NCBI GenBank assembly: GCA_951406725.2
Contig: OX597817.1
Coordinates: forward strand, 6,324,001 to 6,388,000
DNA: 64,000 nt
Direction of reading: 5' to 3'
From: Octopus vulgaris
Lineage: Eukaryota
The translations under genes were made by a program, and so were the position numbers. The notes beneath the pieces were generated by a model. It had not been told where the DNA came from and searched no databases. It saw nothing but the letters and a program-made list of their open reading frames with translations. Shown in pieces: positions 5,651-64,000 of the stretch; position 1 is the first letter of the stretch; each line of letters begins with the position of its first letter.

Positions 5651-6470
5651 ATACGAAAGAAGGTTTGAAAATGCAATTTTAAAAGATGTTTATTTACTTT
5701 ACTGGTTTCACTCTTTGGAAAAAGATTGTCAAAAGTAACATGTAGAAGTTTGGTTGCGTTAATTATTGTTTGTTGCAAATTGCTACATTACATATATACA
5801 GTCTTTGGTAACAAGGACATGTTAAGGACATGGTGGACAGGTTAGTTCTAGCTTCCCTACTATTATAATGTAAACCTTTTTGAACTCATAATATTCTGTG
5901 CGTGTATAACAATATTTGACTGAACTTTTCACTAATTCCTTCTGGAAATTATCTTGAGAATATATAACATATTTGTTGTAATCTTTTGTGTCCAATATTT
6001 CAATGAACTTGTTAAACTTTTTTATGTTCTCAACATGCTCTTGTCACCAAAGAATGCATATATATGTATTGTAGTACTCTGTGTCAACCAATATTCTGTG
6101 CGTGTTTGAATATACAGATACAATACCAATATCCCACTGAACTTTTTAATAATTCCTTCTGGAAACTATCTTAAACATGTTCTTGAGAATGATTATTTAT
6201 GTAGTAATCTTTTGTGCCCAATATTTTAAGGAACTTGTTAAACTTTTTTATGTCCTTAACATGTCCTTGTTACCAAAGACTGTATATATGTAATGTAGCA
6301 ATTTGCAACAACCAATAATCAACGCAACCAAACTTCTACATGTTACTTTTGACAATCTTTTTCCAAAGAGTGAAACCGGTAAAGTAAATAAACATCTTTT
6401 AAATTGCATTTTCAAACCTTCTTTCGTATATAATTCCACTCGTGGCGGTACCCTACAACTCCACTTTGTT
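5651..6470 (+). mobile_element. Penelope-like non-autonomous element with inverted arms (5651-5831 / 6250-6430) and ~40-nt 3' tail, in (TA)n
   Basis: ~180-bp inverted arms. Internal ~200-bp direct repeat (5890-6075 / 6090-6298). The tail 6433-6470 is on one arm only. Hammerhead-like motif in each arm. Confidence 0.7.
6343..6387 (+). ncRNA. hammerhead ribozyme-like motif, U3-A8 variant, imperfect stem II (mirror copy 5694-5738 -)
   Basis: ttactt-TTGACAA-tctttttccaaagagt-GAAA-ccgg-TA-aagtaa: 6-bp stem I, palindromic stem III, GUA site. Confidence 0.55.
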
Positions 6471-6530
6471 ATATATATATATATATATATATATATATAT
6501 ATATATATATATATATATATATATATATTA

Positions 6531-6670
6531 GTAGCTTACTTGCCAACTACATGGTTCCGGTTCAAGTCCCACTGCGTGACAACTTAGGCAAGAGTTTCCT
6601 ACTACTGCCTCGGGCCGACCAAACCTTCCGAGCAGATTTTGTAGACAGAAACTGAAAGAAGCCCGTCGTA
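6531..6670 (+). mobile_element. tRNA-derived SINE family A, partial
   Basis: Diverged match to the 5' half of 7156-7612. Confidence 0.8.
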
Positions 6671-7155
6671 CATACATACATAGAAATACTATATTTTTCG
6701 TAAAATGTGCAACACAAATTGACGCACATTTTCCAAATGCAAACTATTAGCGGAAAATAAATAGTTGTAAGAAATTTCAAAGATTCTCCATACGAGATTC
6801 TTTAGAGTGTGTGCATCAACACCTCATCCAACACACCAGCTCAGCCACATATTTACAAACACTGGGGACTCTTAACTAAAATGTGTTAGCCTTTTGATAG
6901 CAACCGCCTTGAACTCTCTTAAGAATTAAAAAAAAACTCATGGAAACAATTTACATCCATGTATGTTTCCAAGACAACAAATGTTTATAACTTATTGCAG
7001 CAAAGTAGATACAAATAGTGGAATAAACTTAATACTTTAATAAGAAAAGTTGATGCTTAAACACATTCAGGTTTTTAAAATGTGTCAAGAGACCCAAGAG
7101 TGTGGCATATTTCTGAGTTTCAATAAATTCATTACGAATTGTGTGAGCAATGTAC

Positions 7156-7612
7156 AGGCGCAGGAGTGGCTGTGTGGTAAGTAGCTCGCTTACCAATCAC
7201 ATGGTTCCTGGTTCAGTCCCACTGCGTGGCATCTTGTGCAAGTGTCTTCTGCTATAGCCTCGGGCCGACCAATGCCTTGTGAGTGGATTTGGTAGACGGA
7301 AACTGAAAGAAGCCTGTCGTATATATGTATATATATATATATATATATATATATATATATATATATATATATATATATATATGTATGTATGTATGTGTGT
7401 GTGTATATTTGTGTGTCTGTGTTTGTCTCCCTAGCATTGCTTGACAACTGATGTTGGTGTGTTTACGTCTCCGTCACTTAGCGGTTCGGCAAAAGGGACC
7501 GATAGAATAAGTACTGGGCTTACAAAGAATAAGTCCCGGGGTCGATTTGATCGACTAAAGGCGGTGCTCCAGCATGGCTGCAGTCAAATGACTGAAACAA
7601 GTAAAAGAGTAA
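7156..7612 (+). mobile_element. tRNA-derived SINE family A, full length with central (TA)n/(TG)n
   Basis: A-box TGGCTGTGTGG, B-box GGTTCAGTCCC, CORE-like catcttgtgcaagtgtc, tail gactgaaacaagtaaaagag. Near-identical copies at 15491 and 62962. Confidence 0.9.
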
Positions 7613-8511
7613 GTTAAACCCGCTAAGACGTTCAAACTATCTAGATTTTATATTACCATTTAAAAAAAAATAATTATGCTATTCAACTATTTCCTGTTGC
7701 GTTAAGCCTGTGCTATTTTCTTACGAATAACATACTAAGCACAAGTAGCACTTACTAATCAATAAATAACTCAAAACTACTATTGATACAATCCCCAGTC
7801 CACATCACTGTAAACGGAATCAAACTTGGGGAACTTTGTCTCAGCCTCGGAAACGATATTATTTCGTCTGTTGCAGGGAACGGACGAATGAGTATCCTAC
7901 TCTCTTCTTGACTATGAATTTTTTTATGTAAATAAATTTTCAAGCGCTGCATTCATAAAAGATAACATATTTCACAAATATGATGATTGTACCAGCGTGT
8001 GTTTACCATAGAATAACTATATCTTCATGAATTATTAAATAAATATGATGAGAAAAGAAAATATAATTAGATATAAATTTACATTTCCCACAAACTAATC
8101 AATGTAATGTGGAAGGTAGAGCATTTAGAATTAGTATGAATTGAAATTAAATCTATCATACTTGAAGAAAGTATCGAGCAAGCTTTCGTGAATACAGTAC
8201 ATATAAATAAACGGATTATATATCATGCAATCGCAGTATATTGGAAATACCAATCTAACGATGATTATTTCTAGGTTCTGCAGACGCCACACATTTTTGT
8301 GGCATAGTGCATTTAATCGATGTAATCGATTCGTCGACACTTACAGGTTCTTATTTTATCGATGTTTATGTAATAATTGCAAAAATGGCCGCAATGCAAT
8401 TTAAAGTGTTAAAGAATATAACCAAATGGTGCAACTGATTTTTCCGGGATTTTACTGAACGCAAAACAGTAGCGGATTAGAATACAGTTAAGGAAATATA
8501 AATCATAATGT

Positions 8512-8667
8512 GACTGGTTCATAATTTTATCGATCCTGAGAAAAAAAATATAAAAAAATTAAACGTCAGAATCGATTCGCAGGATTTTCGAAATGTTAAT
8601 GTGAGGGACGCATTTAAATACGTCGAGGTATTTTATCTGATGTTTTATCGATTCTGCCAGTTCACTC
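8512..8667 (-). mobile_element. degenerate SINE family B
   Basis: Weak similarity to 21036-21269 (actggt..attttatcga.cc; attctgccagttcac). Confidence 0.45.
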
Positions 8668-61942: not shown

Positions 61943-61949
61943 ATATATG

Positions 61950-62300
61950 AAAGACCACTTATGAGGGTCATGTAAGTTTTACTGGTAATGCATAATCCAA
62001 TACCTGTTGCATGGTCGGGATGTCGGCGACTAAATCGGCGCCCTCACCTGGCATCCCTTGTGAGGAGGGTTATTAGAAACCCAGCAGGATTAAAAATAAA
62101 GACCTGTTGAAAGGTCGGATGAACCTAATGCAGGATCAACGGCTATCTAGCAGAATTTTCAGGATGGTGTCCGGCGTGCAAGAAGACTTCTAAGAGTGAG
62201 GCACCCCTCAGCTTCAGTTGAAGCATATCTCTAGGAGAAGGTCACTCTGATATAAAACCAGATATACAGGGAATGGCATTGGACATTTTGGGGATCTTTA
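61950..62300 (+). mobile_element. probable RTE-type LINE 5' UTR
   Basis: The tctaggagaaggtcactctgatataaaacc motif recalls RTE 5' UTRs. A GC-rich pseudoknot-forming segment lies at 62017-62082. Confidence 0.45.
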
Positions 62301-62961
62301 GTTTGTGCTAGAGATCTTGGCGCTCCTACATCTCTGAGCAAGCGACTCATATTGGTACCAGACATATCGCTCCGGCTTGTCTCTGGATAGCGTCCTTAGA
62401 GTGGAGTGGCTCTTTGAGGTGTCGGGCAAATCTTACTGGACCTAAAACTCTGCACAAGCACTGCTGACCTCTGCCCGATATGTGCTGCATTTTTTCCCAA
62501 TATATACTTTTTTCCTTTTCCGTATATATGTAACTTTATTTTTAGTATATATTTATTTATTTTTAGTATATAGAAGAAGGGAGTTTATAATTATGAACAA
62601 ATCACAACTATAACTATGAGGGTCTGAAAAACCCTTACGTGTTTAGAAATAACAGTCAAAAACCACTATAAAGCCACTACTATTACTCCTATTGTATACC
62701 CTAACACAATACATGTTGTCTGCGGGCGACATGACTTGTAAAATCTACAACTTATAATTAAAAGATTAATTCACCCGCGGAACAGCATTTATTATGAAGA
62801 GGCATAGCATGAGTGTTAATAGGGGCTTTATAGAGATTTTTGACTGCTATTTCTAAACATGTTAGGGTTTTTGAAACGTTCTTAGTTATAACTGTGACTT
62901 GCTAATAATTATAAACACTCTTCTTCTATGTATTTTATGATAAAATGTTTGGCCATTGATA

Positions 62962-63370
62962 TACTCTTTACTCTTTTACTTGTTTCAGTCATTTGACTGC
63001 GGCCATGCTGGAGCACCGCCTTTAGTCGAGCAAATCGACCCCGAGACTTATTCTTTGTAATCCCAGTACTTATTCTATCGGTCTCTTTTGCCGAACCGCT
63101 AAGTGACGGGGACGTAAACACACCAGCATCGGTTGTCAAGTAATGCTAGGGGGACAAACACAGACACACAAACACACACCTACATATACATATATATACA
63201 TATATACGACGGGCTTCTTTCAGTTTCCGTCTACCAAATCCACTCACAAGGCATTGGTCGGCCCAGGGCTATAGCAGAAGACACTTGCCCAAGATGCCAC
63301 GCAGTGTGACTGAACTCAGAACCATGTGGTTGGTTAGCAAGCTACTTACCACACAGCCACTTCTGCGCCT
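62962..63370 (-). mobile_element. SINE family A, full length
   Basis: Reverse complement of the 7156/15491 copies. Confidence 0.9.
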
Positions 63371-63635
63371 ATATATTCATAAATAATTATTAATTGTTTA
63401 ATATATATTCTCAGTAATGTGTCATTATATTACTTTTTAATTATTTAATTTTCCCTACTCATATTTGGTGGTTCGCCGTGGCTCGAATGAACCGGTCTTG
63501 TCTCATAAACGCTGTGCATGACGTTTGGATTCAGAATTTGAGATTGTAGATAGAAGTTGACACATTATTCTTGCCGGTCAGGGTACATGTAAGCCCCAGA
63601 GTGAGATCTTGTATCTAATTCTATCTATAGGAATA

Positions 63636-63697
63636 TTCTCCTGAAGAGACGAATGGGACCCTTAATAGGTTCCTAACGTCGAAATTACTATAGAGAA
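63636..63697 (+). ncRNA. type-I hammerhead ribozyme, canonical core
   Basis: ttctc-CTGAAGA-gacg...cgtc-GAAA-ttacta-TA^gagaa: 5-bp stem I, extended stem II, weak stem III. Downstream 63698-63750 is inverted at 62717-62772. Confidence 0.7.
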
Positions 63698-64000
63698 ATT
63701 ACCTTTTTATTTTTAAGTTGTGGATTTTATAAGTCATGTCACCCGCAGACATAATTTATTTTATGATGACCTGTTTGGCCATTGACACATTCATAAATGA
63801 TTATTAATTGTTTTAATTATTTTTAGTATATATTTATTTTATTTTTATTCGGAAGTTTTGCGGCGAAGGGAAGGTGGTGACGCATGCAGATCTGACGGGC
63901 TTGAAACATGTCGTCAGCGACGTGCACGCTGGCAGGCCGTGCTAGATATAAAGTCGTCTCCTTGTCGCCCCTTTTGTGCACTCATAAAGCATCATGTGCC

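Follow-up and report, generated by a model that had tools for sequence, protein, structure and literature searches.

Are the short, hammerhead-bearing hairpins scattered through one stretch of octopus DNA a class of mobile element in their own right, or the debris of elements already known? The stretch (hereafter the window) spans 64 kb of Octopus vulgaris contig OX597817.1 (positions 6,324,001 to 6,388,000) and is AT-rich animal DNA, dense in (TA)n and (AAT)n. An original prediction made from its letters read the hairpins as a distinct class of palindromic ribozyme elements, possibly self-propagating. We report here that the majority of them are very probably cut-down 3′ ends of Penelope-like elements (PLEs) that folded back at insertion, and that the element at 51472 is a non-coding, tRNA-headed short interspersed element (SINE) likely sharing the same machinery.

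Elements were labelled E1 (5654), E2 (11417), E3 (12112), E4 (14107), E5 (22767 and 60590), E6 (37112, with inner and outer modules), E7 (37868), E8 (44802), E9 (51472), and E10 (63600). The genome that holds the window (2.8 Gb, 227 contigs) was searched, and loci in it are given as L plus a number. Family samples were the 20 to 30 best-scoring loci per 3′-end query and are biased toward likeness to the window copy; for E2, the query favored a short variant. Forty evenly placed 10-kb stretches of the same genome (400 kb) served as a background sample for the strict hammerhead motif.

Hammerhead motifs and upstream reading frames

A descriptor for type-I hammerheads with a palindromic stem III found five intact motifs in the window, against a mean of 0.25 (maximum, 3) in 40 shuffles, and a tighter descriptor found four, against 0.03 in 30 shuffles. 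Nineteen places, from 11 modules, match family-majority ribozyme regions, which agrees with the roughly 18 motif copies first counted. Stems I to III vary in sequence between family majorities with pairing kept, and both C3-G8 and U3-A8 cores occur; the presence of minimal hammerhead motifs in otherwise unrelated short elements is thus borne out. The palindromic stem III said to be shared was scored by the descriptor in 9 of the 11 family majorities (CCGG twice, CGATCG, CATATG, CG twice, ACCGGT, CAGCTG, and TTGCAA); in the E4 majority, CAGCTG is visible by eye, the script giving no score. It does not extend to E5 (22766/60590), where the motif is degenerate family-wide (U4C) and stem III is not palindromic. 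The outer E6 module (37113) carries A6U, and the E1 family (5651) has an imperfect stem II that does not close beside G12.

The window is ordinary for this genome in motif density, with 4 strict motifs in 64 kb against 17 in the 400-kb sample (7 in one array; 10 without it). An Rfam scan of the window gave no hammerhead among the matches listed (150 of 240); minimal hammerheads lie outside those models. Ends of raw RNA reads, taken from a single study of one related organism, show no pile-up, in a library type that may not reveal cleavage. A CTGAGGA match at 14454 was rejected as a ribozyme; it sits in PLE coding sequence.

Longer genomic copies carry eight families (E1 to E5, inner E6, E7, and E8) upstream into PLE open reading frames (ORFs) for reverse transcriptase (RT)/GIY-YIG. 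For E4, the coding link lies inside the window itself; for E8, it was seen in extended stretches, as it was for E1, which in L484 is joined to RT, Zn-linker, and GIY-YIG via a 2.7-kb CA-rich untranslated region (UTR). The E2 3′ module also follows a GIY-YIG ORF in L054. A longer E7 copy matched GIY-YIG (PF01541) at an E value of 0.00085, below the Pfam cut-off, and E7 protein relatives, named ones including Argonauta and Octopus entries, carry RVT_1 (PF00078) and GIY-YIG (PF01541). A Cys linker is present in E7, E1, and inner E6. By tblastn, PLE protein was found at 18/30 loci of E3, 16/30 of E7, 7/30 of E5, 5/30 of inner E6, 1/30 of E2, 1/24 of E8, and 0/30 of E1, the last because the E1 ORF lies 2.7 kb upstream, outside the standard flank. 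Clade names (Neptune, Penelope/Poseidon) were assigned from motifs only. An intact-looking 1,099-amino-acid RT ORF beside an E5 copy (L480, 1440-4736) was considered as a full E5 and rejected; it looks like a separate element without long terminal repeats (non-LTR) adjoining the E5 copy.

These ORF links, with published PLE traits, mark the motifs as PLE-type minimal hammerheads and the fold-backs as products of PLE biology, as had been supposed. What looked like a zoo of elements amounts to debris of a known type, left by eight or more PLE families. Loss of coding sequence in most copies needs one correction, since PLE coding remnants persist in two listed elements (14876-15273 and 61430-61663), and only E9 and the short E2 variant are families without coding capacity. 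Retrozyme-type arrays are rare (at least two same-strand hammerheads in 0 to 2 loci per family of 20 to 30). The proposal of a distinct self-propagating class mostly fails: eight families lead into PLE ORFs, and fold-back points vary by copy. Copy-specific junctions on elements that continue into PLEs are the outcome that the original prediction had itself named as marking ordinary truncation products.

Fold-back anatomy and the tRNA-headed E9 family

Within each family, the 3′ end and the tail length are fixed and the 5′ junctions vary (20 to 30 loci per family). The inverted arm stops short of the 3′ end by 42 to 44 nucleotides (nt) in E1, 46 to 49 nt in E7, 63 to 83 nt in E5, mostly 82 to 92 nt in E2, and 140 to 158 nt in E3; the one-sided tails first described are real, at about 17 to 150 nt. 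Junctions show microhomology and are distinct in 14/14 E7 copies and in all 13 E3 and 6 E1 fold-backs ending at the family offset, and the single repeated E5 junction shares 1.5 kb of flank, being a segmental duplicate. A (TA)n flank was present at 27 to 30 of 30 loci in six families and at 22/24 in E8, so that insertion in (TA)n, proposed as part of a common architecture, applies to most families; the copies at 51472 and 63600 lie outside it. The same architecture called for two inverted arms, which eight window elements have as fold-backs; E8, E9, and E10 (44802, 51472, and 63600) each have only one arm in the window. By comparison, a fixed 3′ end and tail with a copy-specific fold-back is what has been published as the PLE insertion signature.

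Divergence within and between copies was 1.3 and 2.4% in E7, 3.4 and 5.1% in E3, and 2.4 and 4.0% in E2. Arms agree at subfamily sites (22/22 and 17/17 at two E2 sites; 13/13 at one E7 site), with disagreements at arm ends and at the flip/flop center; with arms also closer within a copy, both must come from one source. In predicted folds of both strands, 41 to 43 of 42 to 43 ribozyme bases pair with the far arm (E1 and E7). A fold-back RNA is thus predicted to bury its own ribozyme and would not be expected to cleave, and the hairpins are likely transposition dead ends, because the antisense arm would be transcribed first in either direction and is predicted to pair with the ribozyme.

The reaction that we infer would begin with a staggered endonuclease cut, after which both nicked target strands would prime reverse transcription of the same RNA at two sites close to each other, each 3′-OH starting cDNA at one of the two. 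The tail would be the stretch between the start sites, and both cDNAs would end early and join by microhomology. A 3′ module holding the hammerhead, the binding site, and the two start sites would be sufficient in cis, and anything upstream of it would be copied, be it a tRNA head (E9) or another PLE's end (E6). The E6 palindrome repeats its interrupted TA spacer in mirror image, and neither inner arm has the inner family's tail, which suggests that the outer module took its upstream neighbor along in one template.

In the E9 family, a tRNA-Arg-like head is followed by (AAT)n, then by a minimal hammerhead and a tail of PLE type; the family is non-coding, dispersed, and about 265 nt long plus the variable (AAT)n. 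Exact 32-mers occur 2,794 (ribozyme) and 1,505 times in the genome (reversed controls, 0), from which, at about 4.4% divergence, roughly 10^4 copies are estimated. Two samples were anchored on exact 32-mers (first 30 places along contig C1); a few loci are common to both sets or are two arms of one insertion. Head-anchored loci have the module downstream in 25/30 cases (3 in the inverted arm only, 2 none), and ribozyme-anchored loci have the head upstream in 19/30 (4 in the inverted arm only, 7 none); the chance level is about 0.002. When the majority head was compared with 27 distinct tRNA sequences of the same genome, it aligned best with tRNA-Arg (z, 7.6), and A and B boxes are present. A PLE protein match was found in 1/114 loci, and two same-strand hammerheads in 1/24.

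E9 3′ ends are bimodal, long or short. Among 58 outward-facing pairs, 47 are long+short and 6 fall outside the classes; long+short, in which one arm has the tail and the other lacks it, thus makes up 47/52 classed pairs (P, about 1e-9, with four loci contributing two pairs each), and the tail is carried by either arm. This asymmetry supports priming on two strands at two RNA sites and PLE mobilization in trans. Since E9 inserts outside (TA)n (1/49 long ends abut a TA run), target duplications are visible: one of 7 to 13 bp bounds 20/48 fold-backs, compared with 1.2% of mismatched pairs. In other organisms, loose ends fall at the 5′ boundary and the two 3′ ends seen here (RNA reads, three runs of one study; contigs, four runs of three studies). 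On this sequence evidence, E9 is a tRNA-headed SINE that likely borrows the PLE copying machinery; its likely forerunner is a tRNA-Arg SINE with (AAT)n at its end that acquired a truncated 3′ end from a PLE. We lean, a little beyond even chances, toward the fuller proposal that E9 is a tRNA-Arg SINE driven by RNA polymerase III (Pol III) and mobilized solely by a Penelope-like RT-endonuclease, its copies recording the PLE reaction in vivo. L153, close to a copy of inner E6, holds a divergent version of the E9 module preceded by another kind of tRNA-like head, which suggests that PLE-type SINEs make up two or more families. An upstream variant in L179 was rejected as the E9 partner; it is single-copy.

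A number of results count against these readings. Pfam recognized 3/9 ORF pieces, one of them a non-PLE ORF, so several ORF links stand on motifs and tblastn; in sampled loci, the outer E6 module reached no ORF and E10 had no clear ORF link, and 20 stretches of 7.5 to 10 kb held no full-length PLE with both pseudo-LTRs. The E9 head was not called a tRNA by ARAGORN (default settings) or, in the matches listed, by Rfam, and Rfam scans of two SINE copies gave neither hammerhead nor tRNA among the matches listed. Three long-long and two short-short E9 pairs occur, and 28/48 fold-backs are without a duplication of 7 bp or more. Eight of 114 E9 loci share about 100 nt upstream of the head, so the E9 template can start before it. 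The sampled loci yielded only SINE-like copies or fragments, and no autonomous PLE with the E9 3′ end, so the insertion signature alone points to the partner. Last, some centers recur: two in E2 (4 + 2 of 18, each in both orientations) and one at the 5′ end of E9.

Such recurrence is what would be expected if the hairpins were a separate self-propagating class of palindromic ribozyme elements, copied whole from palindromic masters, and the short E2 variant (~325 nt) lends this most: it is a fold-back in 18/30 loci, and a third copy of one of its centers lies among 13 exact matches to its 5′ end. The recurring E2 and E9 centers, however, are reverse-complement (flip and flop) pairs at small natural palindromes, so the junctions were likely made anew and not inherited. 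In E7, E3, E1, and E5, centers are distinct save for the one segmental duplicate, which refutes whole copying for these four families in the samples; the ORFs reached by eight families and the predicted burial of the ribozyme in hairpin RNA speak against it too, and divergence between the arms of an E9 copy is close to that between copies (8.1 versus 8.9%). We regard such a class as very unlikely. Most E2 matches end at about −295 to −325, and the 13 exact matches share nothing further upstream except inverted arms; we take the variant to be, most likely, a non-autonomous derivative of a PLE, with junctions that form anew at small palindromes. What survives of the idea of non-coding families is therefore the pair of short ones, the SINE at 51472 and the ~325-nt E2 variant, with centers that look newly made. 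Even less credit, close to none, goes to a post-insertional origin, by replication fold-back or recombination at AT-rich sites and not by reverse transcription. As that origin would have it, the (TA)n around the insertions is a palindrome in itself and microhomology is present at the junctions, but the inverted arm ends at a family-fixed distance from the 3′ end, and E9 forms fold-backs outside (TA)n as whole units bounded by a duplication, with the tail on either arm.

Two further alternatives concern E9. It may be moved by a PLE with the tRNA head a mere passenger, RNA polymerase II reading through from upstream and the head being no promoter. The upstream extension shared by 8/114 loci fits this, as do the E9 RNA reads, which are unstranded and in 87 to 88% of cases continue into unlike sequence, as for copies inside other transcripts; such reads demonstrate neither Pol III transcription nor cleavage. 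Yet most E9 copies begin no more than about 10 nt from the tRNA-like start, the loose ends in reads and contigs pile up there, and the majority head has its A and B boxes, so that a passenger head seems rather unlikely. It is highly improbable that E9 is an ordinary SINE moved by an (AAT)n-targeting long interspersed element (LINE), with the hammerhead module incidental. An (AAT)n run does lie inside E9, and such a run is often where LINEs and SINEs have their 3′ ends. The run is internal, however, and E9 ends in a fixed, non-repetitive sequence in varied flanks, with no LINE-type 3′ terminal repeat, which lowers the case for a LINE-driven SINE but not for an element that works like a SINE. 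Two discrete 3′ ends with a duplicated inverted arm also form a tail signature unseen, in the available account, in non-LTR target-primed reverse transcription (TPRT) (PMC8557442). Insertion by PLE machinery, with the tRNA-headed SINE probably a user of it, thus remains the reading adopted here.

Elements and neighboring repeats along the window

Long inverted repeats were found at 37911-38665 (99%), 37112-37801, 11417-11857, and 22847-23589 and between 5654-5831 and 6240-6470. The last pair belongs to E1 (5654..6470, plus strand), a Neptune-like PLE 3′-UTR fold-back with an inverted arm at 5654-5831, a direct arm running to 6470, a 43-nt tail, and a U3-A8 hammerhead core at 6349. E2 (11417..11940, plus strand) is a near-perfect fold-back of the short (~325-nt) non-coding variant, with an 83- to 87-nt tail (11858-11940) and hammerheads at 11556..11612 (minus strand) and 11663..11718 (plus strand); short E2-family 3′-region pieces adjoin (TA)n at 26430-26496, 27474-27540, and 36416-36521. 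E3 (12112..12526, minus strand) is a PLE 3′ end with a hammerhead at 12317-12388, a 150-nt tail (12112-12262), and a short inverted arm (12465-12526). E4 (14107..16600, plus strand), a 2.5-kb PLE fold-back, retains the GIY-YIG remnant at 14876-15273, carries its tail (14107-14245) on the short arm, has a mutated hammerhead near 16420-16500, and is interrupted by a SINE at about 15490-15920.

E5 occurs twice on the minus strand, as a fold-back with the family-wide degenerate hammerhead and a tail of about 70 nt (22767..23599) and as a second fold-back that includes a PLE ORF 3′ end at 61430-61663 (60590..61947). E6 (37112..37819, plus strand) is a palindrome of a chimeric unit, centered near 37456 with a tail at 37802-37819; the unit runs from one PLE family's 3′ end through an interrupted TA run to a second PLE 3′ module. 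E7 (37868..38665, minus strand) is a Neptune-like PLE 3′-UTR fold-back with a U3-A8 hammerhead (38008-38039) and a 46-nt tail (37868-37913). The E8 single arm (44802..45200, minus strand) is a PLE 3′ end whose hammerhead has a long stem II (about 44996-45106). The window copy of E9 (51332..51661, plus strand) comprises the (AAT)n spacer and the 3′ module of the tRNA-headed SINE, with a minimal hammerhead core at 51531 and a PLE-type tail; upstream of it lies a LINE 3′ end, and its head was not found. A tRNA-Arg-like head of the same family stands at 54601..54676 (plus strand), followed by (AAT)n, and no 3′ module was found downstream. E10 (63600..63760, plus strand) is a single arm of an older family, with a hammerhead core at 63641 and the family stem III, TTGCAA, mutated in this copy; a further E10-family fold-back fragment, without ribozyme, occupies 62570-62960.

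Other repeats lie among these elements. A hammerhead-like stretch by (TA)n at 4578-4720 (minus strand, core 4649-4622) has no counterpart in the 400-kb sample, a genome-wide search for it not having been made. Copies of an abundant tRNA-type SINE, which we take to be CORE-like, occur at 7149-7612, 15490-15920 (the one that interrupts the E4 PLE), and 62960-63377. The 3′ ends of (AAT)n-associated non-LTR retrotransposons, presumably Dong/R4-like, are found at 46530-47720, about 50420-51331, and 54842-55790; 46970-47340 and 55192-55562 belong to one non-LTR family and are inverted copies of each other. A long satellite-like array built on GAAAATTTT repeats (26000-32090) has periods of 24, 37, 85, and 219, a strong C skew, and inverted blocks.

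Relation to known systems

New here are likely the PLE-mobilized tRNA SINE (E9) and in vivo counts for two-strand, two-site priming; the hairpin architecture was already known. Statements on the literature below refer to the portions of each source that were available. Much of how PLEs transpose is still to be worked out, and the two-start-site model comes from a single in vitro study (PMC11167929), for which there are now genomic counts in the form of family-fixed tails, one-source arms, the long/short rule, and target duplications. There, Frangieh et al. (2024) found both strands to be cut and extended by a PLE protein, which initiates at two internal sites bounding the tail and has no need of ribozyme cleavage in vitro. 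If the E9 proposal is true, mobilization of a tRNA SINE by a PLE would add a class of SINE partner and supply a short natural trans-substrate, some 10^4 E9 copies would record a staggered 7- to 13-nt cut, two primings about 30 to 35 nt apart, and a microhomology join, and a PLE 3′ module of about 190 nt would be a portable signal making any upstream RNA insertable, retrozymes included. The fold-backs are by-products, yet a plentiful source of long inverted repeats. A rough extrapolation (10 motifs in 390 kb) suggests intact minimal hammerheads on the order of 70,000 genome-wide; for coelacanth and Xenopus, 4,000 to 9,000 have been reported with a different descriptor (PMC4209133).

Endonuclease-bearing (EN+) PLEs (Neptune, Penelope/Poseidon) share with the window families the order RT then GIY-YIG, a minimal type-I hammerhead near the 3′ end (U3-A8 cores included), an inverted 5′-truncated copy, a one-end tail, and AT-rich or microsatellite targets. 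Craig et al. (2021) described PLEs with an inverted truncated copy, a 30- to 40-bp tail at one end, and a microsatellite bias, noting that such a one-end tail is not seen in non-LTR TPRT (PMC8557442); tails here differ in running from about 17 to 150 nt. Minimal hammerheads with the U3-A8 variant and a small palindromic helix III were reported by Cervera and de la Pena (2014), and opposite-strand hammerhead pairs 100 to 700 bp apart have likewise been published (PMC4209133).

Animal non-LTR retrozymes are also non-coding hammerhead elements and have been argued from phylogeny to be PLE derivatives (bioRxiv 10.64898/2026.07.22.740005; PMC7229834), but they form tandem arrays and the window families do not. 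In the available text of the retrozyme preprint, the words tRNA and tail occur 0 times (bioRxiv 10.64898/2026.07.22.740005). True tandem retrozymes do exist elsewhere in this genome. One, in (TA)n on contig C1 near 20,002,100 (L289, 2100-4765), has 5.6 copies, 98% alike, of a 359-nt unit and an inverted arm, with one arm about 43 nt longer, as in the PLE tail signature; it was seen at one locus only. A second family (L126, 150-1451; 353-nt unit) has direct and inverted copies and abuts the (TA)n of an E5 copy.

Octopus tRNA-derived SINEs named OK, OR1, and OR2 were reportedly described by Ohshima and Okada in 1994. OR1 and OR2 are cited as CORE-SINEs (PMC4824008, PMC4758252) and are set apart by those descriptions from E9, whose body is (AAT)n plus a hammerhead module; E9 may be identical to the OK family or may already sit in a database under a different name. 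A 2026 annotation of octopus repeats covers PLEs and SINEs, in its available portion without a link between them (PMC13282606), and the families described here may be listed in the supplements of PMC4209133, PMC8557442, and PMC13282606. A PLE-driven tRNA SINE was not found in the literature searched, which did not extend to Repbase, Dfam, SINEBase, subscription-only journals, or the repeat library deposited for octopus. Chlamys MRC1 and the short non-autonomous Penelope elements of Heliconius are short and non-coding with a PLE-like 3′ end (PMC8557442; PMC6685494); the short E2 variant fits here, and a tRNA head goes unmentioned in the available descriptions of these elements.

The closest precedent for E9, by analogy of layout, is the schistosome Sm-alpha family. 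Sm-alpha and Sj-alpha likewise place a tRNA-derived or Pol III promoter before a hammerhead and are non-coding and high in copy number (PMC6765202, PMC2770079). Their available descriptions name no PLE partner, and Sm-alpha differs in forming tandem repeats from whose multimers the ribozyme frees copies, whereas E9 is dispersed. Unlike Sm-alpha, E9 combines its tRNA-type head with a CG-palindrome minimal hammerhead and with (AAT)n in its interior, and it has inverted arms and a fixed pair of 3′ ends.

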